This document shows positions 1,043 through 29,035 of a stretch of DNA of 35,746 bases, piece after piece. A model generated the notes under the pieces. That model ran no database searches. It was not told the DNA's origin and was given only the letters and a program-made list of their open reading frames with translations. The stretch's first letter is position 1; each line of letters begins with the position of its first letter. The position numbers and the translations under genes were made by a program. The DNA is from Candidatus Nanohalobium sp. (GTDB lineage: Archaea; Nanohalarchaeota; Nanosalinia; Nanosalinales; Nanosalinaceae), in assembly GCA_042216335.1 (NCBI GenBank), contig JBDGTY010000043.1:246-35991 (forward strand), in the 5' to 3' direction.

Positions 1043-1300
1043 CTAGTCTTCGCGTACCATGTCTCTGTCCGCTGATCCGGGCAGATCAAGGTTTTCGTCT
1101 TCTGCATGTCGTTCAGGTACTTTGCGTGTCAGCTGAAGCCTTCCGCATTCCCTGCATTCGAATCCAACAGGTTTTTTGAGAGTGTTGCCCTGTTTCGGGT
1201 CGAGTTCGCCGTCTTCTACATCGTCTTCTTTATGCGTTACTGCCCATACTGCTGTGAAAAGCTGTGAGCCGCATTCACAGATGTCTGGATTGCTTGGCAT
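1043..1300 (-). CDS. Small Zn-ribbon hypothetical protein
   Basis: CECG ... CRECG pair; acidic composition; SD-like GAGGGTG just upstream. Confidence 0.65.
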   Translation of the reverse strand: MPSNPDICECGSQLFTAVWAVTHKEDDVEDGELDPKQGNTLKKPVGFECRECGRLQLTRKVPERHAEDENLDLPGSADRDMVRED

Positions 1301-1396
1301 CTAGCACACCCTCTTGGAAGCTTTTCTGGAGTTGAGTAATGGTTGTTTTAATGTTTTTCCGTTTCGAGCGGTTTCTGGAGAATCCTGCTGCTTCAT
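1301..1396 (-). CDS. Possible 31-aa peptide (MKQQDSPETARNGKTLKQPLLNSRKASKRVC)
   Basis: ATG at 1396; its TAG abuts the ATG of the Zn-ribbon gene; an AT-rich promoter-like stretch lies upstream. Confidence 0.3.
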   Translation of the reverse strand: MKQQDSPETARNGKTLKQPLLNSRKASKRVC

Positions 1397-1438
1397 GAGA
1401 AGTTTTTTGTTGTCTTGATGTTTAAGTTTTTGCCCTTT

Positions 1439-2002
1439 CTACCGCTGCTTGAGTTCACGGACTTTTTCCTGTATCCTCTGCTGGTAGACTGGCTCTCGAT
1501 CCTTCAGGTTGAGGAACCAGTAGGCCCAGATCGCGAGGACGAGGAATGTGAGGCTCCAGCTCCATAGTACGTCGTGTATTATATTGAAGCTGATTATGCC
1601 TTTTTCTGCCAGGAAGATCGTGGTGTAGACTCGTATTATGTTGGCGATCAGTATCACGGCGAATCCCTGGAGGATGAAGTTGAGGTGCTCCAGTGTTCTC
1701 TTCGATGATGCGTACATCAGTCCTGTGAAGGCTGCGAGGCTTTTCCATCCGAGGCAGTCCTGTGTTATGACGTACTGCATGCCTGAAAGAGTTATGTATG
1801 TGCCGTCGGCCGCGGATTGGAATCCCGTGGATTTCAGCATCGCCGAGATGATATCAGCCAAGAACGCCTGAAGAAGGTCAGTGTCGGGATAGATCCAGAG
1901 GATGCCGTGGAAGACTGCTCCAGCCAGCAGTAGCTTTCCGAGGAATACCAGTGTCTTGAACAGTTTCTGTTGAGTCTCCGTGAAGTCTTCCGTGTTTATC
2001 AT
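1439..2002 (-). CDS. Exosortase/archaeosortase family protein
   Basis: Multi-TM protein with the catalytic Cys (ITQDCLGW), Arg (ANIIRV) and His (IIHDV). Overlaps the upstream gene by 4 nt. Confidence 0.8.
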   Translation of the reverse strand: MINTEDFTETQQKLFKTLVFLGKLLLAGAVFHGILWIYPDTDLLQAFLADIISAMLKSTGFQSAADGTYITLSGMQYVITQDCLGWKSLAAFTGLMYASSKRTLEHLNFILQGFAVILIANIIRVYTTIFLAEKGIISFNIIHDVLWSWSLTFLVLAIWAYWFLNLKDREPVYQQRIQEKVRELKQR

Positions 2003-3009
2003 CGGGAATCCTGGTACTCTTTGATTATGGACTCGAAGTCGGTGCTGTCAGGGAGCTCATCGACCACGACGAAGTCCCTGAGTTCGACTCCTTCGACATC
2101 CTCTACATGGTGGATTTCGGCTCCCCGTTTTTGAAGCTTTTCAACCACCTCGTGATCCTTCGTCACCGCCTTCTCAGGAACCCTCTCGACCGAATCATCT
2201 ACCAGAGGCACGATATCATGGTCTTCCTCAAAGATTCGCCTCAACGCTTTCCTGTACTGCTGCTCCCTCACAGCAGCGTCCAGTATCTTTGATTCCAGGT
2301 CCTCGATCTCCCGGTTCTTGTCCCTTATAGTGGCCTCACGCTTCTTCACCTCACGTTCCTTCAATACCTCTTCACGGTCCGCCTCGTTGATCTCCTCTAT
2401 CTTATCCTCAAGAGACTCTATACGGGAGTTCTTCTGCCCGAGCTCTGACTTCAGCTCCTGGACATGTTGCTCGAGATTGTCGATCTTCTTCTCCAGTCTC
2501 TTCCTCTCGGCATCGACCCCCGAATCCTCAGTTTCGACACTTTCCTGTTTCCCGTCTCCCTCCTCAGTGTCTTCCTGACTCCTGACGGGTTCGTCCTTCA
2601 GAATCCTCTCCGCGATCTCATTCACCGGTTTATCAAGTTGCTCGTTGTATTTCCTGATCTTCCTGATGTCCCTCTGGAGCTGCCTCCGGGCGTTCACGGC
2701 AGAGGCCACCGCATCCAGTTCGTGAGAGTTCGCTCCCTTGCCCAGCTCCTTCTTCCTCTCGGAGGAAAGATCGCTCTCAGGCTCGAAGAGTCGGGCGCCG
2801 ACCGAGTTAGCAATCTTCTCCACCTTGCTCGGTGTCTTTCCCTTGTCGGATGCCACGACCACGGGTTTACCCACCTTAATTATTCTCTGGATGATGTCGC
2901 GGGGAGGAAAGTTCTTTCCAGACTCAAGGAGCTCTATTTCGCCGTCAAGGTCGACTGCCGCGACTGCAGAAGTGCTTCCCGGGTCGACGCCGACGATCAG
3001 CGGTTTCAT
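1999..3009 (-). CDS. DUF460 family protein (RNase H-like N-domain plus coiled coil)
   Basis: LIVGVDPGSTSAVAAVDLDG, GKPVVVASD and NSHELDAVASA motifs followed by a long coiled coil. ATGA overlap with hef. Confidence 0.85.
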   Translation of the reverse strand: MKPLIVGVDPGSTSAVAAVDLDGEIELLESGKNFPPRDIIQRIIKVGKPVVVASDKGKTPSKVEKIANSVGARLFEPESDLSSERKKELGKGANSHELDAVASAVNARRQLQRDIRKIRKYNEQLDKPVNEIAERILKDEPVRSQEDTEEGDGKQESVETEDSGVDAERKRLEKKIDNLEQHVQELKSELGQKNSRIESLEDKIEEINEADREEVLKEREVKKREATIRDKNREIEDLESKILDAAVREQQYRKALRRIFEEDHDIVPLVDDSVERVPEKAVTKDHEVVEKLQKRGAEIHHVEDVEGVELRDFVVVDELPDSTDFESIIKEYQDSR

Positions 3010-5174
3010 GAGTATTTCCTGGTTGCGTAGTCCACGATTTTGTCCGCGGTCTTCTCACCTACCCCCTCAACATCCTCCAGCTCCGAAGGGGAAGCCGTGA
3101 ATATATCTCTAACGGTTCCGAACTCCTCCAGCAGCCTCTCGGCGATCTTTGAGTTTATGTCCGGTATCCCGGCGACGATGAACTCCAGCGTTTCCTCATC
3201 AGTCATCCCAGATTTGGTGCCACGCACCTGAACCTCCCTATCCTCATCTTCCTGTTCTCGTCGAGCTAACGCTTTCAGCGTCTCAACTGTATCTTCCTCA
3301 TCATCTGTCCAGATGGTAGGTATCTGGTAGTCAAGCGCCAGGGATGAGATAGCTCCACGTATGGCGTTTGGGTCGATGTCTCTGTGAGTGTAGAGGTTCT
3401 CTCCCTCGATGATGATCACCGGGTTGTCGAACTGTGTCAGCTCTTGGAGCTGGTCGAATAATCTGTTGTCTATTATGGAGTCGACGAAGTCATCAGTCCT
3501 CTTCCTCTCAATCGCCGTCCTGTCCGAGACTATGAAGTCAGCCACGTCCAGCCTCTTCTTTTCGATCTTCAGGTCATCCCTCGAGAGCTCCTTCGCTATG
3601 CTGTTCTCCCTGTCGTCGACCACGATCTCGATCCTGTCATCTTCCTCTTCTTCTTTATTTTGTTTGTCTCCGTCTTTGACCTTGAAGCTCTCCAGCTTCT
3701 TCTGCTGCTTCTCCTGTATCTCGTCCGAGTTCTTCAGCTCCTTCAGCGTCTTCTTCATGTTCTTCTTCTTGTGGTGCGCGCTCCAGTAGTATCCCTCATC
3801 ACGTGTATCCTCAGCGATCAGTACTACAACTTCACCTTCTTCCTGCCTTCCTGTTCTACCTGCTCTCTGGATATCCCTGACTGCTGAGGGAACAGGCTCG
3901 TAGAAAACCACTTTGTCAACCGCTGGGATGTCGAGTCCTTCCTCACCGATCGACGTCGAGACGAGTACGTTGTGCTCACCGGAGTCGAACTCACCCAAGG
4001 TTTCGATCTGCTCCTTCTGACTCATGCCTTCATCTCCCTGCTGGCCGATGAACTTCACAGGATTCAAGCCTTCAGTCTCTAGCTCTTCCACTATTTTGTC
4101 GGCCGTGGCACGATACTCTGTGAAGACAATCGCCTTCTCATCGCCGGAGAGATCCGATAAAAGTTCACGGGTCTCGTCGATCTTCGGATGCTCCTCACCC
4201 TTCTTCCTCAGGTACTCTATCAGGCTCTTGGCCTTCTGGAAGTCCTCATCCTCCAGCGCCCGTCCTGCTGCCTTCGAATCATCGTTCTCCAGCCCTCTGA
4301 TGTAGTCGTAAGCCTGGCTCACTCCCTGTGTCTGAAGCAGTTCGATGGCCTGCGAGATTTTCAGCGCGGTCGCAACGTGTGATATGGCCGAGTAAAGCTT
4401 CGGATCATCGGTTGATGAAAGCTTGGAGCTTATCTGGCCGCGCAGCTTAAGCAGATCGGATTTCTGCTGGTTGACGGAGTCGATCTGATCCATCTTCTTC
4501 AGCTTCTTCAACTGAGTCCTCTTCGCATCCTCCATCTTCTTGTTCGCGGTCTGGAAACGGTTGTCCAGCGACACCCTTTTCCAGTCGACCTCCTTATCCT
4601 CGATATACGGCTCTACGTCCGGATCATCCTCGGTTCTAATCTCGAAGTTGGTTATCTCCAGGTTGTCGGCCACATTCATGATCTTCTCCTTTTCTCCTCC
4701 TGGAGAAGCCGTCAAGGCCAGTCTCTGGCACTGCATCTTCTCCGAGATAAAATTGTAGGCATAATCGCCTGTCGCTCTATGCGCTTCGTCGAATATGATG
4801 AGTGAGAAGTTCTCGGTCGGAATACTGCCGGAGATGAGGTCGTTTTCCACAATCTGTGGCGTGGCGAAGAATGCCTGTTTCTCCTGCCAGAGTTCCTCCC
4901 TTTTTGCGGGCCTGGTCTCGCCTGTCATCACCTGTAACTGGTCCTCGGAGATATCTATGAAGTCCCTGAAGCTTTTCTCGTGTTGCTGTACCAGTGGCTT
5001 GGTTGGTGCGAGGAAAAGTGTTTTTCCATCCGGCAGTTTCTGTGATGCTACCATCGCGGCGATGACTGTCTTTCCCAGGCCCGTTGGAAGAACGACGAGC
5101 GTGTTCTGGTCGCGTGCGGATGCGGCGATGACTTCCTGGTATGTCCTGGATTCGAGTTTTTCGGTCTTCAGCAC
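3006..5174 (-). CDS. hef: Hef: SF2 DEAH helicase fused to ERCC4 nuclease (FANCM/XPF homolog)
   Basis: LPTGLGKT, DEAH, LTASPG, QRAGRTGR; ERCC4 domain VDDRE...ERKRTDDF; C-terminal HhH2 (VEGVGEKTA). Confidence 0.95.
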   Translation of the reverse strand: MLKTEKLESRTYQEVIAASARDQNTLVVLPTGLGKTVIAAMVASQKLPDGKTLFLAPTKPLVQQHEKSFRDFIDISEDQLQVMTGETRPAKREELWQEKQAFFATPQIVENDLISGSIPTENFSLIIFDEAHRATGDYAYNFISEKMQCQRLALTASPGGEKEKIMNVADNLEITNFEIRTEDDPDVEPYIEDKEVDWKRVSLDNRFQTANKKMEDAKRTQLKKLKKMDQIDSVNQQKSDLLKLRGQISSKLSSTDDPKLYSAISHVATALKISQAIELLQTQGVSQAYDYIRGLENDDSKAAGRALEDEDFQKAKSLIEYLRKKGEEHPKIDETRELLSDLSGDEKAIVFTEYRATADKIVEELETEGLNPVKFIGQQGDEGMSQKEQIETLGEFDSGEHNVLVSTSIGEEGLDIPAVDKVVFYEPVPSAVRDIQRAGRTGRQEEGEVVVLIAEDTRDEGYYWSAHHKKKNMKKTLKELKNSDEIQEKQQKKLESFKVKDGDKQNKEEEEDDRIEIVVDDRENSIAKELSRDDLKIEKKRLDVADFIVSDRTAIERKRTDDFVDSIIDNRLFDQLQELTQFDNPVIIIEGENLYTHRDIDPNAIRGAISSLALDYQIPTIWTDDEEDTVETLKALARREQEDEDREVQVRGTKSGMTDEETLEFIVAGIPDINSKIAERLLEEFGTVRDIFTASPSELEDVEGVGEKTADKIVDYATRKYS

Positions 5175-5199
5175 GTTGAATTAATGTGTGGGAATCTTC

Positions 5200-5724
5200 T
5201 TAACGGTTCAAGTTTACGCCTCTGGCATCTCTCGGGACCTCCATCGCCTGGATCAGCTTGAAGACTACGTTGAACCCGATGAAGAACACGGCAGCACCTT
5301 TCAACGTGACCGTGTTGACCGGCATCGACGTCTTGATCATGATAACAGCGATATAGGCCAGTGAATAAACTATCCCGGAGGATGATACCACAAAGGCGAC
5401 TGTATCCGGCCATTTGTGGTTGAAGTCCATATACCCAACTAGACCACCAATTCCGACAAGTGCATAGGCCGCATATTTCTCCTGCTGTGTCATCTGGGTC
5501 GTCATCAGAAGCGTGATTCCCGTAGTGGCCCAGATTACCGCATTGCCGACAGACGTGTTCCACCCCAGCTCCTCCCTGCTGTATTTGCCGAAGTACAGCT
5601 CTATAACTATGGCGCCCAGCACTATTGGCAGTACAGTCGGCAGTATTTCCGGCTGGCGGAGAGGAGTGAACACGAAGGTCTCCACAGTCGATTTTATGGT
5701 TTCACCAGTAAGTGCTGTAGCCAT
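5200..5724 (-). CDS. Multi-pass membrane hypothetical protein
   Basis: About 5 hydrophobic segments; ELYFGKYSREELGWNTSVGN motif; 13 nt downstream of the ATPase stop. Confidence 0.75.
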   Translation of the reverse strand: MATALTGETIKSTVETFVFTPLRQPEILPTVLPIVLGAIVIELYFGKYSREELGWNTSVGNAVIWATTGITLLMTTQMTQQEKYAAYALVGIGGLVGYMDFNHKWPDTVAFVVSSSGIVYSLAYIAVIMIKTSMPVNTVTLKGAAVFFIGFNVVFKLIQAMEVPRDARGVNLNR

Positions 5725-5737
5725 ATCTTCCTATCAC

Positions 5738-8700
5738 CTAGTCGCTGAAGGCATCCGGTGTTCCACCGGCGTGCCAGCTTTTTCTCGGCCTCATCTGAAC
5801 GGGGAATATCCTCTCGGAGTTATCGTCCAGGATCAATCCCGTTCCTGTCCTGTCTGGAAGTGCATCGATGTAGTGCTGGATGTCGTGCCGCATATACGTC
5901 TGCATGATCTCACCCAGCGCATCTATATCCTGCTTTGCCGTCAAACGATGGGAAAGAACTATGTCGCACTGGGAAAGTGCGTTCGGATGGAGCTTGGCAG
6001 GCTGCTGCGTCGCAAGAACGAGCGAAACGCCCGGCTCCCTTCCTATCTTGACCCAGCGGAGCAGTGGATGTGTGGCCGGCGTTTCGCCCTCTGCCGGAAG
6101 GAACTGGTGGGCCTCGTCGATCATCATCCAGACTATAGGCATCTCGTTCGACGCGATCCCCTCCATCTCGTCCAGTTCCTCCACTCTTCGGGCCTCCATT
6201 CTCTGCCTGAGGATCCTCTTCGCCAAGAGTCCGACTACCAGTGAACGGATTGACCAGCCGGAGCTCATCTCGCCGAAGACCGAGACGTCGATGACCGAAA
6301 GCTCTCCTCTCTCTGTGAACTTCTCAAGCGAGGATTCTTCCCCGAAGATCCCCCAGTCCTTCGCGTTGCTCAAACGGTTTTCGAGGCCTTTCTCCACCTC
6401 TTCATCGAAGTCGAACTTCTCAGTACCTTTTATGACGTGATTCAGTGAGTAATCTACACCGAACCGGTCAGTCAGCTCCGTTATTATCTTGTCAAGCAGT
6501 ATACCCATCGTAGACGAAAGATCTATCTCCAGTGCCATGGCCCACTCCGAAGCCGTCAGCTCGCCCGGATTGATCGTGAAGGTGTCATCGTACGGCATCT
6601 CCTGCTCCTCGAACCTCTGGACCTTCCCCTCCGGGATGTAGACCTGAGGATCGAAGGTAGAGGGCTTGGTGCTCCACTCGTCGAGAAGTCCTGCCGCCCT
6701 ATCATTAGGATGCTTCATCGACCAGTAGATCCCCATGGAATCGATTATAATAGTCGAAGTGTTCTGGGAGATGTCAGAATCCTGTATCTCCTCCGCTATA
6801 GTGCCGAGAGAGTAGCTGTTGTGGCAGAGTATTCCTCCGAATCCTGCAGTAAACGAGTGATCTTCCTCGACTGTCAGGTCGTAGACCCATCCCTCATAAT
6901 TTATCTTTTCTATGTTTTTGACCTCATCCCAGTAAACGTCAGAGCTAGCCAGCTTATCAAGTTTCTCCAGCTTCTTTTCTGATTCAGATAGGTCGTGCTT
7001 TGCTTCGAAAAGCCTGAGAGCGATTTCGGAAAGCTTCTCCGGGTTTTCCTCATATTTCCTGTAGTTCAGGAATCTCTTGTCCGGCCGCGAGTATCCCAGT
7101 TCTTCATTCATCTCTTTCCAGAGGACGGCAGATTTATCGACAAGTTCTTCAACATTGTCTGTAGAGGGATTTTCCTCAACTTCTTCCCTGAGCTCCTTCA
7201 ATTCCGTGAGGAAGTTCCGAAGCTCTCCAGTTATCTCTGCCAGTTTCTGCCTGCCTGGATCGTATTCACCGTCTTCATAGGACTTCAGCGATTGCTTATA
7301 CTCCGCTACCTGGGTCCTGTCGGCTCCCATGAGCTCTCTGCATTCCTTGATCAGTTCACTGCATGGTACTGTATCGACATTAGTATTAGACTCCTTGATT
7401 ATATGCTCCAGTTTCTCCGATTTCCCCCCAATTGAGAAATCTATCCTCTCCTTGAACTTTCTGAGCTGGTCGCTGCCGGAAACTGTGACCTGGTAGTAGG
7501 TCCTGACTTTCTGCTCTTCAGTGTTGGAGGCATACTTCCGCTTCTCCGTCGTCCGCCCGATTATGCCGAACCTGAGAAGCATGTAGTTCACGGCTTCGGC
7601 TATCTCCTCACTAGCGGTAGAAAGCTCTATCTGCTGATCCGTGACGTTGCCCTCACAGTCATAGTAAATCTGGAGGAACCGGGAAACCACCTCATCGCTG
7701 GAGGAAAGAACGAAGTTCGGGATGCTTTTACCGAATGAGTTCTGTCCTGCATCGTAGCCATTCTGTTTCAGGAACTTCTCCAGAGCCCGCGAGTTGGAGT
7801 AGATAGAGTTCTGATCCATTTCCCTGAATTCCAGGTCGAAGAGTTCCTGGCCAAGTTCCTGGAAACGATCCAGGAAATTTTCGTTATTGTTTGTGAATAT
7901 TACTCTGTAGTTGCCTTCAGATATTTTCTGTTCGTGGCCTTCAGCTATCAGGAAGGCCATGAACTCTGCAAGCTCAGTTGTCACTTGTTCCGGAACTTTG
8001 ATCGGATCTGCTTTTCCTGTACTGTAGTGCTGTTCTGTTTCTCTCTGCCTCAATTCATATTCTACCTTCTCAGTTACCGAGACTGTATTCTCTTCAACCG
8101 AGACCAAGCCTTTACTTTCTGCTCTGTGAACCATTTTACGGAAAGAGCCGGTTCCATCGGACGCATCGGCGATAGTAATTTCTCCTTCCTCAAGAAGTTC
8201 CGACTCCCTCTGATTTAGACTTGAGTAGTCTGCTTTCTCGAAACTTTCCGGGAATTCAAGTTCAGAGTTCTCTGTAGAGATGTCGATTTTCCTGGGGACT
8301 CCTATCTTCACACCCTCTGAAAGGCTTTCGGCGTTCTCCCATCCTTCTACCGTGAAAAGCGGGTGCTCGGCTGTAACAGTTATCTCCCTTCCCGATCTGG
8401 TTTCTACCCGGTAGAGTTCTTCGTCAACCCTCTTTCTGTAAGCCGCGACCACCTCATTATCTGAAAGCTCGAAATCTTCCGCAACCGATAGTACTTCAGG
8501 ACCGTTAAACCGGTAAAGTTCCTCGTCTTCTTCCCTGATCTCCGCATCTCCCTTTTCTCTGGCTTCACCGAAAAGTTCTCTGATATCAGTTAAACCATCT
8601 TCAGTCAGTACTTTTTCATCCGGCATCAGGCACTTGCCCGTTCCTCTCTTCCCGAATATTCCCATGACGTGTGGCCGGGCGATGTCGAAGTATACCGGGT

Positions 8701-8815
8701 TGGCTTTGTGGGCTTCCTCGTTCTCACCTACAAGGTGTTTTCCGATCATCCCTGTTCCTTCCAGGCCGTGTTCCTCCTGGTCTTCCTCGTCCCTTCCGAC
8801 TACGATCTTCGGCAT
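5738..8815 (-). CDS. HerA/DUF87 (FtsK-HerA superfamily) ATPase, intein-containing
   Basis: Likely start MPKIVVG at 8815. Walker A GKRGTGK|S is split by an intein; Walker B WMMIDEAHQF; GREPGVSLVLATQQP. Mature protein is about 420 aa. Confidence 0.9.
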   Translation of the reverse strand: MPKIVVGRDEEDQEEHGLEGTGMIGKHLVGENEEAHKANPVYFDIARPHVMGIFGKRGTGKCLMPDEKVLTEDGLTDIRELFGEAREKGDAEIREEDEELYRFNGPEVLSVAEDFELSDNEVVAAYRKRVDEELYRVETRSGREITVTAEHPLFTVEGWENAESLSEGVKIGVPRKIDISTENSELEFPESFEKADYSSLNQRESELLEEGEITIADASDGTGSFRKMVHRAESKGLVSVEENTVSVTEKVEYELRQRETEQHYSTGKADPIKVPEQVTTELAEFMAFLIAEGHEQKISEGNYRVIFTNNNENFLDRFQELGQELFDLEFREMDQNSIYSNSRALEKFLKQNGYDAGQNSFGKSIPNFVLSSSDEVVSRFLQIYYDCEGNVTDQQIELSTASEEIAEAVNYMLLRFGIIGRTTEKRKYASNTEEQKVRTYYQVTVSGSDQLRKFKERIDFSIGGKSEKLEHIIKESNTNVDTVPCSELIKECRELMGADRTQVAEYKQSLKSYEDGEYDPGRQKLAEITGELRNFLTELKELREEVEENPSTDNVEELVDKSAVLWKEMNEELGYSRPDKRFLNYRKYEENPEKLSEIALRLFEAKHDLSESEKKLEKLDKLASSDVYWDEVKNIEKINYEGWVYDLTVEEDHSFTAGFGGILCHNSYSLGTIAEEIQDSDISQNTSTIIIDSMGIYWSMKHPNDRAAGLLDEWSTKPSTFDPQVYIPEGKVQRFEEQEMPYDDTFTINPGELTASEWAMALEIDLSSTMGILLDKIITELTDRFGVDYSLNHVIKGTEKFDFDEEVEKGLENRLSNAKDWGIFGEESSLEKFTERGELSVIDVSVFGEMSSGWSIRSLVVGLLAKRILRQRMEARRVEELDEMEGIASNEMPIVWMMIDEAHQFLPAEGETPATHPLLRWVKIGREPGVSLVLATQQPAKLHPNALSQCDIVLSHRLTAKQDIDALGEIMQTYMRHDIQHYIDALPDRTGTGLILDDNSERIFPVQMRPRKSWHAGGTPDAFSD
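6818..8632 (-). mobile_element. Intein (605 aa) with LAGLIDADG homing endonuclease and extra HTH-like insertions
   Basis: Begins CLMPDEKV; block B TAEHPLF; LAGLIDADG-like LAEFMAFLIAEG and FLQIYYDCEG; ends VYDLTVEEDHSF...ILCHN followed by Ser+1. Confidence 0.95.
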
Positions 8816-8850
8816 TGGTTCAAGCTTGGGCGCGGTCGGGTTTAAAGTTT

Positions 8851-9462
8851 TCAGAGCACCGACAGGATCATCGCGATGATGGTCGTGCCCATGAAGATCA
8901 GCCACATGAAGCCGGTCCACATGATGATGTACGCGCCGTCAAGTTGTCCACACAAGGGCTTCTCTTCGTCAAGAGGCAGCAACTGGAAGAACGTGAATAA
9001 TGCAGTAAGTTCGGCCAGGTTCTGGAAACCCAGAGAGTAGACTGTGAACCAGCCTAGAAGCAGTGTCGTTATTCCTGAGGCTGCCAGCCAGTACTCCCTC
9101 TTCGCCCAGATCGCATCGATACCTTTACCCCAGTGCTCATACCTCTTATTTGAGTATTCGGAGAAAACAGGTACGAGGAACGCAAGATTGAAGACCGAGA
9201 CGTAAGAAAACGCAGCGACCAGTATAGTCGCCACTGCTCCCTCCCGCGATAGCTCGGAACTTACGTCGGCCTCCATCCAGTGCGCAACCACTCTCTGACC
9301 CAGTTCACGGAAGAAAAGCGTGATCAAACCGAACAGTATGAATACTGCGAATGTTTTCGGCGCCGTAACCTGCTTATACGCGGAGAAAGCCGCCCCGACC
9401 GTGACACCTCCGATCAGGAAGTTCTGGATATCCTCTTTCCCGGGACGCAGCGCCTCGACCAT
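8851..9462 (-). CDS. Site-2 protease (M50)-like membrane protein with degenerate active site
   Basis: FFRELGQRVVAHW where HExxH is expected; FFQLLP...LDG matches the NLLP..LDG motif; multi-TM. Likely start MVEAL at 9462. Confidence 0.6.
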   Translation of the reverse strand: MVEALRPGKEDIQNFLIGGVTVGAAFSAYKQVTAPKTFAVFILFGLITLFFRELGQRVVAHWMEADVSSELSREGAVATILVAAFSYVSVFNLAFLVPVFSEYSNKRYEHWGKGIDAIWAKREYWLAASGITTLLLGWFTVYSLGFQNLAELTALFTFFQLLPLDEEKPLCGQLDGAYIIMWTGFMWLIFMGTTIIAMILSVL

Positions 9463-9493
9463 AAGGGAAAATAGCAACTCCCGGATTAAAAGA

Positions 9494-9973
9494 CTATGTA
9501 AACATCTCCATCATGTTCTCCGTAAGATCGTAGTCCTCGGAATCACGGAATATCTCCGGAAAATCCCTGATCTCATCCAGGTGCATACCGGTCTCACCCT
9601 GCTCATAACACTCTCTCAGGGCTGTCCACGGCACCATGTACGCCTTCCGGGCCTTGCCTCGTCCCCGCTTGAACTCGACGGCCAGAAAGCCCTTTCTCCC
9701 GCTTCTATCGATGAAGTCGGAGATACGCTCCACCTGATGGCCTCCGTTGCTCGTCGAGAAATGCTGTGAGAAGTACAGCTTGTTCGTTGAATCAGTCTTC
9801 ACCGACTTGTTCTCGATCGCCAGGTAGAACGTCTCATGCGGCGAATCAACCAGGACATCACATAACTGAGAGGAGAAGCGATGCTGCTTCTTCCTGTGCG
9901 CGATACCCTCGATCCCCTCCTCTTCGAAGAAATCGTTGAACGAATTGACTAGTGCGCGTTCGAAGTCTGTCAT
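9494..9973 (-). CDS. PD-(D/E)xK nuclease, Holliday-junction resolvase/RecU-like
   Basis: N-terminal FERAL helix, CDVLVD...AIENKS catalytic motif, and HQVERI segment resembling the RecU HQ motif. Confidence 0.65.
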   Translation of the reverse strand: MTDFERALVNSFNDFFEEEGIEGIAHRKKQHRFSSQLCDVLVDSPHETFYLAIENKSVKTDSTNKLYFSQHFSTSNGGHQVERISDFIDRSGRKGFLAVEFKRGRGKARKAYMVPWTALRECYEQGETGMHLDEIRDFPEIFRDSEDYDLTENMMEMFT

Positions 9974-10032
9974 GGTTTTTTCTTGGGATAGCAGAAATAA
10001 AAATTGTTAAGCGCCGAGAAGCAAACCGAAAT

Positions 10033-10134
10033 ATGAGCCTGGAAAAGATGAAGAAAGATGTCAAATCCTTCGCGAAGCGCTTGCTGGAGCTAGTGCCAGA
10101 GCCATTGATCGAAATTATGGGAGATATTTTCTAG
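10033..10134 (+). CDS. Possible 33-aa amphipathic peptide
   Basis: MSLEKMKKDVKSFAKRLLELVPEPLIEIMGDIF fills the gap between two genes; TTGTTAAG lies about 25 nt upstream. Confidence 0.35.
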   Translation: MSLEKMKKDVKSFAKRLLELVPEPLIEIMGDIF

Positions 10135-10877
10135 AAACTATCCAGACCCTTCTGGTCCGGCCGTTTCAGTGTCTTGCCGGAAGTCATCGCCATCGCCACC
10201 CTGCCATTCGAAACTATCTGACCCTTCACCGATTTTATCTCTCCTTCCAGCAACCCTTTTCTCCTGAAATCCCCTTCGATCCCGGGATAGACCGTCAGAC
10301 TCTGGACGTCAACTATTTCGGAATCGAAATCTTTCTCTTCCAGGATATCCCTCAGTTTTGACGGATTTTGGGGTGGAGATGTCTTGTACTCTTTTCTTAT
10401 CCTCTGTGTGATTTCTCCATCTGTCAACTCGTCTTCCTTCTCCAGTGCCTCGTTCGAGGTTACCCCGGAGAGTATCTCTGCCCCGTAGTCGGCTCCCTGT
10501 TCGATCCATCTGCGGGGGATCTTCTCCTTCCTTGTTACTCCGACTTTGACCTCTTCTCCAATCTGGGCGAGATAGACCGAAAACTCTCCGTCGAGGTCGT
10601 TTTCCTCGCCGCGGACGTAGCCGGAGTAAATGTCTTTTCCCCGGCACTCCGGACACTGCGATCCCGAGGAAATCTTCCTGAACCCGGGGCACGGCGCTCT
10701 TTCCCCCTTGCCTGGTGCGTAACCTGTGCACCGTCTCTCGTCAGTTATCTCCGCCGATATGCTTCTTCCCGGTTCCAGGCCTCTCTTCTCGAATCCGTTT
10801 TCAGTTGCGAGGAAGAGTTTGGCCTTCCAGCCTTCACTCTGCTGCCGCCACTGCACCTTGACTATCGACTTCATCAA
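10131..10877 (-). CDS. DUF2797 family Zn-binding protein
   Basis: CTG..CP..QCPEC cluster; VYLA..VKVGVTR...RWIEQGAD motif. Confidence 0.8.
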   Translation of the reverse strand: MMKSIVKVQWRQQSEGWKAKLFLATENGFEKRGLEPGRSISAEITDERRCTGYAPGKGERAPCPGFRKISSGSQCPECRGKDIYSGYVRGEENDLDGEFSVYLAQIGEEVKVGVTRKEKIPRRWIEQGADYGAEILSGVTSNEALEKEDELTDGEITQRIRKEYKTSPPQNPSKLRDILEEKDFDSEIVDVQSLTVYPGIEGDFRRKGLLEGEIKSVKGQIVSNGRVAMAMTSGKTLKRPDQKGLDSF

Positions 10878-11469
10878 GCATCCTCCTCACCGGTTTGACG
10901 TGGGCTGCACCCAGGAAAGCCACCACGTCGCCCTCGTTCTCCTCATCTACTTTCTGCAGCGCCTCCACTATATACCTGTTTCTCTCCTCCATCAGGACGC
11001 GGTAGATACCAGGGAATTCCTGCCTGAGTTCCTCGACAAGCTCGTCTATGACGTCATCTTCCGGGATACTGGATATGTCGAACCTCTCACCACCCAGGAA
11101 GCCCAGAACTATCGAGAAGGCGGCCTTCACCTTTTCCTTCCTCCTGACATCTTTCAGCCGCTGCATCGTAACTCTGATATCCTGGTCGACCAGCGCCACC
11201 TCCCTTTCCTGTTCCATCGATGCCTCGAATGCGTACTTCATCTCATCGCCCGGCATAACACCTGTTTTGGATCCGATGCTCTGCTGGAAGTGCCTGATGA
11301 GGCGCGGGAATAACCCTCCAGCTGCTTCATCCTCATCGTTCATAAGTGAGTTGAGTCTCGGATAGTCTAGTTCCAGTGCCACGACTTCCGGGTCATGCTC
11401 CTCAAGCGCCTCGTCTACCACGTTGAAGCTGTCTTCTGATACGTGGGAGGTTCCGTAGAGGTGTATCAA
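10834..11469 (-). CDS. TraB/GumN family protein
   Basis: GTSHVS, VALELD, PGDEM, LVDQDI, ERN and LGAAH motifs. Confidence 0.9.
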   Translation of the reverse strand: MIHLYGTSHVSEDSFNVVDEALEEHDPEVVALELDYPRLNSLMNDEDEAAGGLFPRLIRHFQQSIGSKTGVMPGDEMKYAFEASMEQEREVALVDQDIRVTMQRLKDVRRKEKVKAAFSIVLGFLGGERFDISSIPEDDVIDELVEELRQEFPGIYRVLMEERNRYIVEALQKVDEENEGDVVAFLGAAHVKPVRRMLDEVDSQGAVAAAE

Positions 11470-11533
11470 GACGGGATCACAGTTACATTTATGCTCCTAA
11501 ACGTTGTAAATCAAGGGTTGAAAACTATTTCTC

Positions 11534-12004
11534 ATGCTGGCACGGCATCCTTTGATCACCGAACCTATGCTGGCAGTAACGATGCTGGGAAGCCTAACAT
11601 TCGCGGTGATAACCGTCACAGCCCTCTACTCAGCCAGGAAAAAAGAGCTGGCCGGAGAAACCTTGTTAGGGCTTCTGATCGCGAACTCCATAGTTTATAT
11701 CTCCAAGGTTCTGGTATCAAGGCCGAGACCGGAACACATACTGCCGGAAGTAGCCAGATACTCGACAACATCCTCCTTCCCGTCAGGCCACACAGCCACG
11801 GCCTTCCTCCTCGCAGGAAGCCTCAGCAGCCAGATAAGCAGAAGAACAGCTTACACCATGGCCTCTCTAGTCGGGATTTCCCGGATCTACCTTGGAGCAC
11901 ACTTTCCCTCAGATGTAGTAGCTGGAGCAGCGATAGGAATTCTCACAGGAAGGCTAGTGGATTACCGGAAACTATTTGAGACGATCTCCTCTACTTCCTC
12001 CTGA
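11534..12004 (+). CDS. PAP2 family membrane phosphatase
   Basis: KVLVSRPRP, SFPSGH and SRIYLGAHFPSDV motifs. Confidence 0.9.
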   Translation: MLARHPLITEPMLAVTMLGSLTFAVITVTALYSARKKELAGETLLGLLIANSIVYISKVLVSRPRPEHILPEVARYSTTSSFPSGHTATAFLLAGSLSSQISRRTAYTMASLVGISRIYLGAHFPSDVVAGAAIGILTGRLVDYRKLFETISSTSS

Positions 12005-12792
12005 AGAACGCCGTTTGAAGACACCACTTCAGTACTGTCGGGGAACTTCGAATCACGGACCCTGACCTCTCCACCAGCTTCCTCAATAATTAGTTTGGCC
12101 GCGGCCCAGTCCCACTCCGTCACAATAGCATTTACTGCAAAATCAGCTTCTCCAGCCGCGACCCTGCACATCTCCAGCGCACAGCTACCGAGCTGTCGAT
12201 GAACTGCATCCCTCCTGGCCAGCTCTTCAAGTATATCCATCTCGGCCTCAAGCTCTCCCTCGTAGATATCGAACAACGTCAGGAAGAACAGAGAATCCTC
12301 GATACTGTCGTGGCTGCTGACCGTGATTGCTCCAGCATCAGACAGTTTTCCCGAATCAAGAGCATAGGCCCCGGCATCCTTCAAAGCAAAGTAACTCCTA
12401 TCAAGAGAAAATTCCGGAGAGTAGACAAGGCCGACAACTACTTCCCCGTCAACCTTCAACGCGATGGAAACACAGTAATGGCTGAAACCGTGGTCAAAGT
12501 TGAACGTGCCGTCTACCGGGTCAATCACCCAGACACGGTCCTCGCCATCGGGCCTCAAGTTCTGCTCCTCTCCCAGGAAACCGTCATCCGGAAACTCTTC
12601 CGAGATAATTTCAACGATCTTTTCCTGCGACCTTCTGTCCGCCTCAGTCACCTTGCTGCCATCCTCTTTACTGCCGGTTTCAAAGCCGTTCTCCGCATAG
12701 TCTTCGATCATATCTCCGGCATCTTCCGCGGCCCTGAAAGCAGTTCTGAGTTCACGCAAGTACTCCGAGCCTTCGAATTTAGCCACTGACAT
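11962..12792 (-). CDS. Inositol monophosphatase family protein
   Basis: VTEAD, GEE, WVIDPVDGT and WDWAAAKLIIEEAGG motifs. Likely start MSVAK at 12792; the ORF extension upstream overlaps the SRP RNA. Confidence 0.9.
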   Translation of the reverse strand: MSVAKFEGSEYLRELRTAFRAAEDAGDMIEDYAENGFETGSKEDGSKVTEADRRSQEKIVEIISEEFPDDGFLGEEQNLRPDGEDRVWVIDPVDGTFNFDHGFSHYCVSIALKVDGEVVVGLVYSPEFSLDRSYFALKDAGAYALDSGKLSDAGAITVSSHDSIEDSLFFLTLFDIYEGELEAEMDILEELARRDAVHRQLGSCALEMCRVAAGEADFAVNAIVTEWDWAAAKLIIEEAGGEVRVRDSKFPDSTEVVSSNGVLQEEVEEIVSNSFR

Positions 12793-12827
12793 GAGAAAAA
12801 TTTCCGATTTTAGAAGTGTTAAAACCA

Positions 12828-13097
12828 GTGGGTTCCCGGAGGTGGACGGCTCTATAGGACTGCCCGGGCGCCGGTTTCGGATCCGCCACCCTCCAAACAT
12901 GCGACTGACTGCTTAGAGCTGCTCCCGTCAGGGCCTGACCCGGTTCACAGCCCGCCGCATCCTGGAGGACGGATCGTCAAACAACCAGACAACCCGGAGA
13001 CAGCGACCCCACAGAGACCGCCGCCCAACCGGTTGACGGCTCCAGCATAACGAGGAATTTTCCGGAAAGAGGCGACCCCAAACCGCCCAACCTACCC
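12828..13097 (-). ncRNA. ffs: Signal recognition particle (7S) RNA
   Basis: Minus strand reads GGGUAGGUUGGGCGGUUUGG..., an archaeal Alu-like 5' end. Helix 8 GUCAGG-CCC-UGAC-GGG-AGCAG is present, long helix 5 pairing is visible, and the 5' GGGU pairs with 3' ACCC followed by a T-run. Ends are approximate. Confidence 0.9.
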
Positions 13098-13123
13098 ATG
13101 TTCACGATAAGTGGTTGGAAAGG

Positions 13124-13130
13124 TTAAAAA
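13124..13130 (-). promoter_or_regulatory. TATA-like box for SRP RNA
   Basis: TTTTTAA about 27 nt upstream of the predicted 5' end. Confidence 0.5.
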
Positions 13131-13198
13131 CCGGATGGATAGAAACAACTGCCTTTACAAGACCGAGAAATATTAAAATTCAGCTCCAATTAATCAGT

Positions 13199-13441
13199 AT
13201 GGCTATCAGCTTGGACCTTCCAAGTGAGCTAAAAAATATTGAGGAGGTTGACAACGGCAGGTATAAGTCGAATTCAGAGTTTCTACGTGATGCTATCCGG
13301 TTGAAGCTTATCGAGTCGGACCTTGAACTCCGTGTAATCTCGGATAATACTAGAGAAAAATTGATGGAGCGTGTCAGTAAGGCCAAAGATTCCGAGAAGT
13401 ATACTGTAGAAGAAGCAAGGGAAGAACTAGGGCTGGAATAA
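13199..13441 (+). CDS. Ribbon-helix-helix (CopG/Arc/MetJ, ParD-like) protein
   Basis: ISLDLP...GRYKSNSEFLRDAIR plus the antitoxin-like tail YTVEEAREELGL. Confidence 0.75.
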   Translation: MAISLDLPSELKNIEEVDNGRYKSNSEFLRDAIRLKLIESDLELRVISDNTREKLMERVSKAKDSEKYTVEEAREELGLE

Positions 13442-25464: not shown

Positions 25465-26334
25465 GTGAATGACATACAATTGGCTGAGGAGTATGCAGAA
25501 ACCATAGTAAGTTTAGAGAAAGAAAGTGCCAAATATGGGTTTCTAAAAGAATACTGGCAAGAAGCCACAGGTATACTAGAGGAACAGATACAAAAAGGCA
25601 ATAGCTGGACTAAATCATCAGGTACAAATACCGGAGCAGTCTACAACTTATTTGAAGACGAATTCAAAATTCTAGATAGCAAGGGATTTGAGAAAAGTTA
25701 TCATATTGAAATAGGAATGGAAGAACTAAACATACTTAGAGAAAGAATCAGAAAACACTTCGAAAGAGGGTACGATGAGACCGAGCTTATAGCCATCCTT
25801 AAATCAAAGTCCGAAGAATCTCCCCTATCTTCCCGAGAACTAAGAGAAAGAGATGACACACCTACTGAGACACCCTATATCAACCAATTCGGAAGCCTAA
25901 ATAACGCATACTGGAGAGCAGGAATAGAGACGGAAGAAAGATACGATCGAGAAATATTAATCGAGGAATATCTAAAGAAGTTGCACGAGGAAAATATAGG
26001 AACAGATCTGTTACTTCACACTCCCTCCTTGGGCTCCGATAGTATGCCGTCCAACAGAACATATAGGAATCACTTTAAAGACATTGAGGAACTTAGAGTA
26101 GCAGCAAGTTCACAACTGATAGCAGATATTGATGAGGAACTTGAAAACTGGCACTTCATAATACACTCTCCATTGAATCTGGAGATAGGAGCATACAGTG
26201 GAAAAACACTGATAGACCAGGCGAACTACGCTCCGGAAAATCCGGAAGATCTGAAATCAGTTTATCCTAGACTGAAGGCAGAACATCCAAGGGTAAGAAA
26301 CAGAGATCGAGTACGTGAAAACCCAAATGACTAA
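25465..26334 (+). CDS. Protein with two homing-endonuclease-associated (HNH_repeat-like) repeats
   Basis: YDETELI...PTETPYINQFGSLNNAYWRAGI and YDREILI...PSNRTYRNHFKDIEELRVAA; AT-rich. Confidence 0.6.
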   Translation: MNDIQLAEEYAETIVSLEKESAKYGFLKEYWQEATGILEEQIQKGNSWTKSSGTNTGAVYNLFEDEFKILDSKGFEKSYHIEIGMEELNILRERIRKHFERGYDETELIAILKSKSEESPLSSRELRERDDTPTETPYINQFGSLNNAYWRAGIETEERYDREILIEEYLKKLHEENIGTDLLLHTPSLGSDSMPSNRTYRNHFKDIEELRVAASSQLIADIDEELENWHFIIHSPLNLEIGAYSGKTLIDQANYAPENPEDLKSVYPRLKAEHPRVRNRDRVRENPND

Positions 26335-26566: not shown

Positions 26567-28768
26567 TCAGGTCTCGACGACTGATTCCACGTCTTCTGCC
26601 AGTTCGTCGTACTTCTCCCGTTCTTCCTCGTCCAGTGATGCTCCTACTTTGTCCACTGCTTTCTCTAGATAGCTCTGCGTCAGTGTCAGATCGCCGAGAT
26701 TCTTCTCGATTTCCTCAGCCGGTGTGTCCTCCAAGTAGTCTCTCATCGCCAGCATTGAGGCTTCTCTGGACACTGCTTCCAGGTCGCTGCCTGTGAATCC
26801 TTCGGTTTCTTCTGCAAGCTGCTCTATGTCTACTTCTTCCGATGGCTTGCCCTCAAGGTGTATTCGGAGGATCTGTTCACGTGCTTCTTGATCTGGTACC
26901 GGCACCTCGACTATCCTGTCAAGTCTGCCGGGTCTGAGGAGTGCTTGGTCGATCATGTCGGGTCTGTTGGTCGTTGCGATGACAACTACATCCTCCAGCT
27001 CCTCTATACCGTCTAGCTCTGTCAGGAGCTGTGATACCACTCTCTGCTCTGATTCGCTGCCTATAGATCCGGCATCCCTTTCGCCTGCGATGGCGTCGAT
27101 CTCGTCGAAGAAGATTATGCTTGGAGAGTTCTCTCTTGCTTTCTCGAAGACTTCTCTTACTGCTTTTTCCGATTCCCCGACGTACTTGTTCAGTAGTTCA
27201 GGGCCTTTTACCGGTATGAAGTTGGAGTCGCTTGCGTTGGCCACCGCTTTTGCTAGAAGGGTTTTTCCTGTGCCTGGAGGGCCGTAGAGCAGTATTCCTT
27301 TGGGAGAGTCTGTATCCATGTGGTCGAACATCTCTCCGTGGTTCAATGGCCATTCGACAGCTTCAACCAGTTCCTGTTTTGCCTCTTCGAGCCCTCCGAC
27401 ATCTTCGTAGGATACGTCGGGAACTTCGACGAAGAACTCCCTCATTGCGGACGGCTCTACCAGGTTCATGGCCTGTTCGAAGTGCTCTTTCTTGACTTCA
27501 AGCTCCTCCAGCACTTCTGCTGGTACTTCTTCCTCGATGTCGATGTCTGAGCGTATTTCTCTAACTGCCCCCATGGCTGCCTCCTTCGTGAGGGATGCGA
27601 GGTCGGCGCCTACGAACCCGTGAGTTCTCTCCGCGTACTCTTCCAAGTCTACGTCGTCGCTGTATGGCATGCCGCGTGTATGGATCTGGAGTATCTCGTT
27701 TCTTCCCTCCTTGTCCGGTACGCCTATCTCGATCTCCCTATCGAAACGGCCTCCTCTTCTCAGCGCGGGATCGATGTCGTCGACGCGGTTGGTGGCCCCT
27801 ATGACTATGACGTCATCCCTGGCTTCTAGTCCATCCATGAGTGAGAGAAGCTGGGCTACGACCCTTCTCTCCATCTCGTCGGAGTCTTCTCTACCAGGTG
27901 CGATGGAGTCAAGTTCATCGAAGAAGATTATGCTCGGAGCGTTCTCCTCTGCTTCTTCGAATATCTCCCTGATCTCGCCTTCTGACTCTCCGTAGTACTT
28001 GCTCATTATTTCGGGGCCTGAGACGGAGATAAAGTTGGCATTGACTTCGTTGGCTACTGCTTTCGCGATCAAAGTCTTACCTGTTCCCGGAGGGCCGTGA
28101 AGGATAACGCCTTTAGGAGGTTCAATGGCCAGCTCCTCGAATATCTCCGGGTTTCTTAGCGGCATCTCGATCATCTCTCTTACCTGCTCAAGTTCTTCGT
28201 TCAGGCCTCCTATATCCTCATAGGTGACGTCAGGGACTTCTTCAGTTCCTGCCTCGCCTGTATCTCTTCCCTCTACTGATGCATCCTGAGAGATGCTTAC
28301 CCTGGTCCTGTTCGTCACAACTACAGGGCCTTCCGGGGAAGTTTCCGCAACCGCGAATGTCAGCGGCGAGCTGATGAACTTGACCCTGAAGCGGTCTCCC
28401 TGCATCAGCGGCTTGTTACTGAGTGCTTTCTTCAGGTAGTTCTGGCCTCCTTTCACTGCGAGCGACTGTGAGGTAGGTGTCAGGGTCACTTCCTTGGCCT
28501 CTGAGGCCTGAGCCTTAGAGACATCTACCTGATCTCCTATGCCTACACCGGCGTTCTTCCTAGTGTTACCGTCTATCCGGACTATGCCTAGCTGGCGGTC
28601 CTGCTTGTAGCCAGGCTGGGCCACAGCGACGGTGTCTTTATCTCCACTGATTTTGACTACATCGCCCTTCTCAATCCCTTCGGACTTCATCCTGTCGGGA
28701 TCGATGAGGGCTTTCTTCTTTCCAGCGTCACGTGGTTTAGCTTCCGCAACTTCAAGTTTTATTGACAT
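26567..28768 (-). CDS. cdc48: Cdc48/VCP family AAA+ ATPase
   Basis: N-domain plus two AAA modules (GPPGTGKT twice, [26 protein letters not shown]). Likely start MSIKL. Confidence 0.95.
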
Positions 28769-29035
28769 ACACAAAAAAAGTTAGAGGCTTTACCCTTTTA
28801 AATCTTTTCCCAAAGCGTTTCAATTTGAAATCCCAAAAGAATCGAAAAAGGGTTAAATCCTGTCCATCAACCCATCCTTATTCCCCTGGTACTACTTAAC
28901 GATTACATTGCCTCTCTCCTTCTCCAAGCCTATCTTTTCCAGCTGCTCGGCAGAGCCCTCCTCCTGCCAATCCTGCTCCTCTGAAACTCCGGAAAAGTTT
29001 AAAATCGTAATACTTCGTAATACTTTTCCGAGTGG

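Follow-up and report, generated by a model that had tools for sequence, protein, structure and literature searches.

FtsK-HerA ATPases act as membrane-associated DNA pumps, and the described systems closest to the gene considered here are canonical HerA (Sulfolobus 4d2i; Thermococcus 9x1l and 9x1m), the Ced system of Crenarchaeota (CedA/CedB, CedD), VirB4 and FtsK/SpoIIIE. In this report, we analyze a 35,746-nucleotide (nt) stretch of DNA from Candidatus Nanohalobium sp., referred to throughout as the window and supplying all coordinates unless a contig or locus is named, and in particular an ATPase gene that lies in a conserved block of co-oriented genes; the genes of this block are all on the minus strand. 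This ATPase and canonical HerA have in common a RecA-like core with a helical insertion, the DUF87/HerA_C domains, and the Walker A and B motifs, but the window protein has no HAS barrel, its genome has no match to the partner nuclease NurA, its identity to HerA is 16-20%, and its scores fall far under the HerA cut-offs. As judged from a structural model, the ATPase is a HerA-clade RecA-like core that lacks the HAS barrel. Its gene is interrupted by an intein, and its most persistent neighbor is the gene for the helicase-nuclease Hef. We read it, tentatively, as a DNA motor that works with Hef rather than with NurA.

Placement in the HerA clade rests on structural Z-scores and NCBIfam models. 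A Pfam scan of the intein-split gene returned no ATPase family; the portion downstream of the intein, taken alone, gave weak HerA-type matches, and intein-free orthologues match DUF87, with or without HerA_C. An AlphaFold2 model was made on the orthologue P0006 (87% identical; NCBI source Candidatus Nanohalobium constans) from a diverse alignment of 43 sequences and reached a predicted local distance difference test score (pLDDT) of 92.1 and a predicted TM-score of 0.91, superseding an earlier and poor model from 14 close orthologues (pLDDT 58). In a structure search, the model matched Sulfolobus HerA (4d2i) best, with a Z-score of 32.3 over 344 aligned residues and a root-mean-square deviation of 3.8 (model residues 1-420 on chain residues 110-477), followed by the C-domain of DndH (28.4), VirB4 (27.4), anti-phage HerA and Deinococcus HerA (26.5 and 26.4) and, lower down, TrwB (19.7) and FtsK (2ius; 17.7). 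Foldseek agrees on this ranking, its top matches being HerA-NurA complexes (prob 1.00, E 1.7e-20). Because the first residue of the model aligns with residue 110 of HerA, the core begins where the HAS barrel ends, and no barrel is present. Indeed, only 54 residues precede the Walker A motif GKRGTGK. The active-site elements Walker A, DE(A)H, R321 and Q332 vary little or not at all across the 43 diverse members.

These results bear out much of a first-pass annotation of this DNA, which had been made from the letters of the stretch by themselves and had held that roughly 60 residues before Walker A were too few for a HAS barrel and that the locus was not the canonical HerA repair module. NCBIfam HerA models score 27-43 bits on the P0006 orthologue against cut-offs of 800-970 (NF040937, 31.4 against 800; NF040819, 27.5 against 970). 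The same annotation had noted that NurA and Rad50 are not adjacent, and domain scans find neither anywhere else in the window; moreover, the assembly itself (96.2% complete) gave no match to NurA (PF09376) at E<=0.1, and for Rad50 it gave coiled-coil matches of 16-20 bits, with no true match among them. The precedent that the annotation had drawn from crenarchaeal CedA/CedB fared less well. The Ced comparison covers the ATPase models CedB (NF041017) and CedD (NF053655), neither of which matched P0006 (E<=1e-5) or the downstream part of the window protein (E<=1), and the same models do match two other ATPases of this genome's lineage. What the locus has in common with Ced is the FtsK-HerA superfamily and the presence of nearby membrane genes, but these membrane neighbors are here a probable pseudoprotease and an orphan. 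The core likewise resembles VirB4, but no VirB4 N-terminal domain (CagE_TrbE_VirB/TraC) was found by Pfam in the ATPase or its orthologues, and a VirB3/PrgI-like neighbor is absent; both are found instead on another contig of the genome, C31. With respect to FtsK/SpoIIIE, the FtsK motor model PF01580 does not match the window ATPase, a crude hydropathy count finds no transmembrane segment and no N-terminal membrane anchor, and the Z-score is well below that of HerA.

The ATPase gene is an open reading frame (ORF) of about 3 kb whose features, with lengths in amino acids (aa), are as follows:

5738-8815, minus strand: ATPase precursor, 1025 aa, barrel-less HerA-clade by its fold
8841-8846, minus strand: TTTAAA, a TATA-like box that precedes the ATPase ATG by 26-31 nt
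8633-8815, minus strand: N-extein, 61 aa, with the Walker A motif GKRGTGK at its C-terminal end
6818-8632, minus strand: intein, 605 aa, with a LAGLIDADG homing-endonuclease domain (PF14890, PF14528, TIGR01445, TIGR01443)
5738-6817, minus strand: C-extein, 359 aa plus stop codon, with Walker B (IDEAH) and a conserved RPRKSWHAGGTP tail; weak HerA matches

The first-pass annotation had correctly called a HerA-type ATPase here and had passed over the 605-aa intein inside it, which splits the Walker A loop between K61 and the following serine, the precursor running GKRGTGK / C...(605 aa)...HN / SYSLG. The insert scores 87.5 bits with Intein_splicing (PF14890; cut-off 35.8) and 72.1 bits with LAGLIDADG_3 (PF14528), its termini score 63.5 bits (TIGR01445) and 33.6 bits (TIGR01443), and Cys1, a TAEH block-B-type motif, the terminal HN and Ser+1 can be read from the sequence. 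By these features, the insert is a class-1 intein with a LAGLIDADG endonuclease. The ORF finder placed the start of the gene at a GTG at 8920; orthologues (414-421 aa) uniformly begin MPKI, and since all start MPKI..GR, the true start is taken as MPKIVVGR at 8815. The joined exteins (61 + 359) then make 420 aa, which is how long most intein-free orthologues are. Among the 40 related genomes with a full orthologue, the same site is intein-free in 35 (341-482 aa, two of these shorter open frames being cut by contig ends) and intein-bearing in five (967-1066 aa). The N-extein is 74-92% identical to the contiguous N-termini of family f1 and 55-71% identical to those of other families; the exteins are contiguous in L031-L039, and L040 and L042 have allelic inteins inserted at the identical junction, the inteins there being 52-61% and the exteins 66-82% identical. 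Further afield in DPANN, intein domains are present in every one of the 120 top-ranked longer relatives, and several intein-bearing relatives are named in NCBI solely as 'LAGLIDADG family homing endonuclease', names that mask the identity of the ATPase. P-loop inteins of ring ATPases occur in DnaB, MCM, RFC and RecA, which the present case resembles in having a LAGLIDADG class-1 intein inside Walker A and intein-free alleles in close relatives, but the host here is an uncharacterized HerA-clade ATPase.

Two observations concern inteins in other genes. In L037 (genome G013, 9635-13354), the Hef gene is itself interrupted, its halves flanking sequence with 25% identity to the LAGLIDADG portion of the window intein. 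On contig C54 of the window's own genome (about 7083-10850), a Hel308-like helicase occupies a 1284-aa frame in which the model matches three separated pieces, a pattern that suggests one or more inteins; if inteins are present there, at least three DNA-metabolism ATPases would be intein-bearing in a 1-Mb genome.

The ATPase is widely retained. The C-extein matches all 41 genomes of the order, full-length orthologues being found in 40, and identity within the order is 54-87% (40% in G012). Searched with a profile, a set of 1.84 billion representatives yielded 340 clusters (50% identity) below 1e-30, and 599 of 600 pattern matches in a genome-collection search encode relatives, the best 80 matched loci spanning records titled Nanohalo-, Aenigmat-, Woese-, Nano- and Undinarchaeota. 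Long relatives include a 925-aa protein from Lokiarchaeota, a 707-aa protein from Diapherotrites with a C-terminal winged helix, DUF835 forms and proteins from Theionarchaea, and some relatives carry C-terminal winged helix-turn-helix fusions. At six loci with long relatives of Asgard type (L149-L153 and L156, out of 22 such loci taken from metagenome contigs), Pfam at E<=1e-4 recognized no ESCRT family of the Snf7 or Vps4 type in 51 ORFs, of which 47 were neighbors and 4 the ATPase ORFs. A 402-aa cluster (P0210/P0397; 125 members) named Candidatus Poribacteria, which are bacteria, falls in the same barrel-less family (E 6e-78), and the family therefore extends outside Archaea. No haloarchaeal member was seen among 20 representatives looked up by an acidity screen and by cluster names. 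DPANN genomes are tiny, at about 1 Mb; retention in every related genome examined, together with its standing as a favored intein target, marks the ATPase as an important protein. From its distribution in sequence collections, the barrel-less family is a strongly conserved, uncharacterized core gene of DPANN archaea, and it would imply that a HerA-type motor can exist without a HAS barrel and without NurA. Full-text literature searches, which did not cover supplements, found no description of a barrel-less HerA family.

In the window, the ATPase gene is the third of five co-oriented minus-strand ORFs (9494-9973, 8851-9477, 5738-8815, 5200-5724 and 3006-5174), separated in transcription order by 16 nt (31 nt if the second gene starts at ATG 9462), 35 nt, 13 nt and 25 nt. 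These five genes and their gaps of about 13-35 nt are present as the first-pass annotation described them, but the conserved string is wider than its five-gene module and comprises nine: TraB, DUF2797, Hjc-like, site-2 protease (S2P)-like, ATPase, five-transmembrane (5-TM), Hef, DUF460 and archaeosortase-like. DUF460 overlaps Hef by 4 nt and the archaeosortase-like gene overlaps DUF460 by 4 nt, so the co-oriented string extends beyond Hef. Apart from the ATPase, its members are:

10834-11469, minus strand: TraB/PrgY/GumN-family protein, 211 aa, first in the block (PF01963, 67.8 bits)
10131-10877, minus strand: DUF2797 protein, 248 aa, start codon uncertain (PF10977, 46.2 bits)
9494-9973, minus strand: Hjc-like PD-(D/E)xK nuclease, 159 aa (PF01870, 20.7 bits, borderline)
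8851-9477, minus strand: S2P (M50)-like membrane protein, 208 aa, with a probable start at ATG 9462 (203 aa) (Atlas structure, 3b4r)
5200-5724, minus strand: orphan 5-TM protein, 174 aa (unmatched in Pfam and NCBIfam)
3006-5174, minus strand: Hef helicase-nuclease, 722 aa (NF010337, 868.8 bits, cut-off 610)
1999-3009, minus strand: DUF460 protein, 336 aa, with a long coiled coil (PF04312, 107.9 bits)
1439-2002, minus strand: small exosortase/archaeosortase-family membrane protein (ArtL), 187 aa (TIGR04178, 39.6 bits, cut-off 23)

The neighborhood was compared across 20 loci of the order and 80 wider loci (78 of them analyzed for neighbor families); these loci are mutually related, and neighbor counts are therefore not independent events. 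The identity of Hef is unambiguous from its model score and its DEAD, Helicase_C, ERCC4 and HhH domains, and Hef is the most persistent neighbor of the ATPase. It occurs in 21 of the 80 wider loci, 13 of them nanohaloarchaeal and eight of Aenigmatarchaeota type (nanohaloarchaeal profiles), and when neighbors within three genes are clustered, Hef forms the largest family (21 members, 20 of 78 loci), followed by the S2P-like family (12 loci). Coupling of the ATPase to junction or fork nucleases, as the first-pass annotation had supposed, is thus supported by the recurrence of Hef in two phyla, and DUF460 also follows Hef in Aenigmatarchaeota (L111). Within family f1, 10 of 12 loci keep the order Hjc, S2P-like, ATPase, 5-TM, Hef, (DUF460), ArtL, usually after TraB and DUF2797; the exceptions are L042, without the S2P-like gene, and L048, which is not collinear. 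Over the 20 loci, genes recur in 14 (TraB, at the same position), 9 (DUF2797), 17 (DUF460 after Hef) and 19 (ArtL downstream). Other families of the order keep ATPase, (5-TM), Hef, DUF460 and ArtL, and there Hjc and S2P-like lie some 4-5 kb off. The outer flanks of the window behave differently, in that among the 20 loci an IMPase gene recurs only in L031 and L042, a PAP2 gene only in L031, and a gene for a 264-aa protein nowhere. At the loci labeled Woese-, Nano- and Undinarchaeota among the 80, neither Hef nor S2P-like neighbors were found, and the recurrent neighbors are a SurA-like peptidyl-prolyl isomerase (encoded on the opposite strand), a Toprim protein, Translin, a Trp/Tyr-tRNA synthetase-family protein (PF00579) and a CNNM transporter. 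Other DNA-related contexts of the ATPase include one locus with gyrase A directly upstream and the company of a KaiC/RadA-like ATPase beside XPF.

The spacing of the block invites an account of how it is transcribed. The TTTAAA box before the ATPase gene is among only 26 matches to TTTAWA on both strands of the window, and 26-31 nt upstream of an ATG is where the TATA box of a leaderless archaeal mRNA is placed. In orthologous loci, TTWWWW stands at -24 to -40 before the ATPase in 17 of 20, before Hjc in 12 of 18 and before Hef in 3 of 20, and it is found before none of the 5-TM (0/17), DUF460 (0/18) or ArtL (0/20) genes. Many Hef upstream regions carry a TTTATCAA-like string, which falls outside the TTWWWW count, and in the window the Hjc-like ATG is preceded, at a distance of about 26-34 nt, by an AT-rich TTTTTATTT. 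The 13-nt spacer between ATPase and 5-TM holds the Shine-Dalgarno-like GGTGAT. On these motif counts, the units read as Hjc, S2P-like, and ATPase with 5-TM, the last possibly reading into Hef, DUF460 and ArtL. The ATPase gene appears to form a bicistronic unit with that of the 5-TM protein, a pairing that speaks for the first-pass annotation in its association of the motor with a membrane protein. Elsewhere in the window, a TTTAAA at 28797-28802, 23-28 nt upstream of a gene for a Cdc48-type AAA ATPase (26570-28774), also fits leaderless transcription.

The reading that we favor, though we would put its chances somewhat short of even, is that the ATPase is a NurA-independent DNA translocase cooperating with Hef on branched DNA. 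Excision of the 605-aa intein from the Walker A loop of the 1025-aa precursor would be needed to yield a 420-aa enzyme, which would assemble as a hexamer and, with DNA as its presumed substrate, translocate along double-stranded DNA at the expense of ATP. Branched or broken DNA would be its target and Hef, encoded two genes downstream, its partner, perhaps joined by DUF460 and the Hjc-like resolvase, in a helicase-nuclease partnership for the processing of stalled forks or junctions that has no need of NurA; loss of the HAS barrel would have meant loss of any NurA-type docking. The membrane genes would then be lineage-level additions, the S2P-like protein being a dead relative of active small S2P proteins that travels with the TraB-like gene, and the 5-TM protein an orphan co-transcribed with the ATPase in most Nanohaloarchaeota and dispensable in some. 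If the pairing with Hef is true, it would constitute a new helicase-nuclease pair in archaeal fork repair, with Hef/XPF as the candidate nuclease partner.

Several points weigh against this reading. DNA binding by the ATPase is predicted from its fold alone. Hef is absent at the loci labeled Woese-, Nano- and Undinarchaeota, so two related phyla may simply have inherited this synteny, with no functional link behind it. A TTTATCAA-like motif stands upstream of Hef itself in many loci, so that co-transcription with the ATPase is not assured, and a repair motor that is purely soluble would not be expected to share an apparent bicistronic unit with a membrane protein. Furthermore, the repair set of the genome shows no gap that would need this ATPase: RadA, a RadB-like gene and a Hel308-type helicase are present, as is a HerA paralogue of the barrel type. 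The genome carries three additional DUF87 genes. The HerA paralogue, on contig C28 (8954-12367; L146:958-4368, minus), is a 1137-aa frame with about 140 residues before the P-loop, which would leave room for a barrel; its DUF87 region is interrupted by a LAGLIDADG intein containing an HTH_3 domain, and an intein-free orthologue of this type (620 aa) scores 148 bits with a HerA model and 89 bits with CedD.

Less probable, though still the strongest competitor, is the view that the block is made up of unrelated housekeeping genes whose synteny is conserved and among which the ATPase plays an independent role (replication, chromosome maintenance or even action on a non-DNA substrate); we consider it rather unlikely. 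The mostly divergent and unrelated flanks of the ATPase outside Nanohalo- and Aenigmatarchaeota, among them a SurA-like isomerase, tRNA synthetases and a CNNM transporter, fit such a view, as do the mixing of DNA enzymes with peptidase-like and sortase-like membrane genes in the block and the apparent promoter-like motifs that the ATPase and, in many loci, Hef have of their own. It has more difficulty with the persistence of the block, the order of which is kept across at least 11 genera while the flanking IMPase, PAP2 and 264-aa genes are common to few, and with the presence of Hef beside the ATPase in a second phylum, at 8 of about 67 non-nanohaloarchaeal loci, which is far above chance for a single-copy gene. 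The 4-nt overlaps and the 13-nt gap moreover point to operon-like coupling downstream of the ATPase.

The next alternative, that of the first-pass annotation, places the ATPase in the cytoplasm as the engine that drives a DNA translocator anchored in the membrane and serving segregation, uptake or transfer; the ATPase would be docked on the 5-TM protein, the S2P-like protein or both and would feed DNA to the junction nucleases. We hold it to be improbable, and much depends on the two membrane proteins. The 174-aa 5-TM protein shows five hydrophobic segments by eye, as that annotation had counted, and a crude hydropathy count gives 2-4 in orthologues. The protein has an invariant loop, ELYFG...E.LGWN..(V/E)(G/S)N, and its family numbers 150 homologues, every named one nanohaloarchaeal. 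In 15 of 19 nanohaloarchaeal loci, its gene comes immediately after that of the ATPase, and in L032 (genome G001, 9084-10142), from the same genus, two tandem copies (172 and 173 aa) stand between ATPase and Hef. This adjacency, the duplication, and the 13-nt gap with its GGTGAT and with no TATA-like string before 5-TM count in favor of such a translocator; however, the gene is missing between ATPase and Hef in L043, L045, L047, L066, L067 and L068, and the family is confined to Nanohaloarchaeota while the ATPase is DPANN-wide. By its distribution, the 5-TM protein is a lineage-specific companion of the ATPase, probably co-translated with it.

The S2P-like protein was rightly recognized as such in the first-pass annotation, given scores of TM 0.79-0.85 to small archaeal M50-type clusters in the Atlas structure search, with which its features agree, and a best PDB profile match to the S2P core 3b4r (MJ0392), at a marginal E of 0.032. 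With respect to site-2 proteases, the fold and both signature regions align, but the HExxH zinc site is absent and the Pfam M50 family gives no match. In the window protein, RELGQ replaces HExxH and the LDG motif is kept. Ten f1 copies aligned with it read RE(L/F/I/V/A)G(Q/V/F)R and Q..P...LDG (F..P in L041), the deep-branching L047 has KELLQR and N..P...LDG, and the Aenigmatarchaeota copies in L073, L125, L135 and L092 have HELxH and N..P...LDG, the fifth such copy, in L075, having HHIGH. Since both zinc-binding histidines are lost, the window protein is a probable pseudoprotease, and the zinc site was probably lost within Nanohaloarchaeota. The family thereby appears to offer a clean example of a membrane protease becoming a pseudoenzyme inside one phylum. 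In favor of a place in a translocator, S2P-like homologues lie upstream on the same strand in six further loci (L069, L073, L075, L092, L125 and L135; profiles after one iteration), Aenigmatarchaeota among them. The gene is nevertheless set apart from the ATPase by a conserved promoter-like box, and in family f3 it remains grouped with TraB and Hjc, three genes having come between it and the ATPase; these three, in L070, include one of the surface type (Laminin_G_3), S2P-like remaining beside TraB-Hjc. In L073, it follows a TraB-like and a Lon_C-like gene. Its gene order suggests a separate unit that pairs with TraB. Neither membrane gene is therefore conserved beside the ATPase across DPANN, the part of the proposed neighborhood comparison that went against the first-pass annotation, whereas the recurrence of Hef in two phyla went in its favor; as conserved parts of a translocator, the membrane genes are not supported.

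A membrane pump has precedent among the FtsK-HerA ATPases, VirB4 included with its high Z-score, but the CedB and CedD models pass over the window ATPase, which has no transmembrane segment of its own, and the genome carries a VirB4/PrgI module elsewhere. On contig C31 (7.2 kb), positions 1268-5384 (L147) encode a VirB4-like conjugation-type ATPase of 766 aa (NF045971, 267 bits), which also matches CedB (E 1.8e-8) and CedD (E 3.2e-13); a PrgI-family membrane protein and another membrane ORF lie upstream. From its gene content, this module is a candidate DNA-transfer module or mobile element and a better candidate for a transfer machine than the ATPase block. By analogy of the HerA domain only, the Haloferax volcanii protein HVO_1301 might also be adduced for a motor at the membrane: a 2026 preprint describes mid-cell localization of this HerA-domain protein and only minor effects of its deletion (10.64898/2026.07.16.738847).

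Less probable again is a combination of both ideas, in which a DPANN-wide motor would have had its NurA docking replaced by a partnership with Hef/XPF and, in Nanohaloarchaeota, would be held at the membrane by the co-translated 5-TM protein. If true, this would be a new archaeal machine coupling segregation or DNA passage at the membrane to the resolution of branched DNA, and would come near to what the first-pass annotation had proposed. Finally, a role for the ATPase in HerA-type anti-virus defense (SIR2-HerA, DUF4297-HerA, MADS) is highly improbable: its best NCBIfam match is an anti-phage HerA (43 bits), its best PADLOC matches are generic HerA/mad8 (70.1 and 65.7 bits) and its PDB sequence matches are anti-phage HerA chains, but the anti-phage HerA scores lie far under curated cut-offs of 800-850 bits, the seven other block proteins that were scanned match no defense model apart from coiled-coil noise in DUF460, occurrence in 41 of 41 related genomes at the identities given above is core-gene behavior rather than the patchy spread of defense islands, and the HAS barrel, which is the effector-docking part in HerA defense systems, is missing.

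Hjc, which the favored partnership with Hef would admit as a possible further member, deserves a more guarded label than the RecU/Hjc-like nuclease of the first-pass annotation. Its PF01870 score of 20.7 bits is just under the cut-off of 21.1 (21.2 bits in a six-frame search, where it is the sole Hjc-type match in the genome), and its profile has no match among PDB sequences; the acidic and lysine residues that would make up the catalytic E...D...ExK pattern, E5, D39, D43, E54 and K56, are invariant across 11 orthologues. Elsewhere in the window, positions 25465-26331 hold a free-standing ORF of 289 aa with a weak match (28.3 bits) to HNH_repeat, which is homing-endonuclease-associated, lying outside any host gene.

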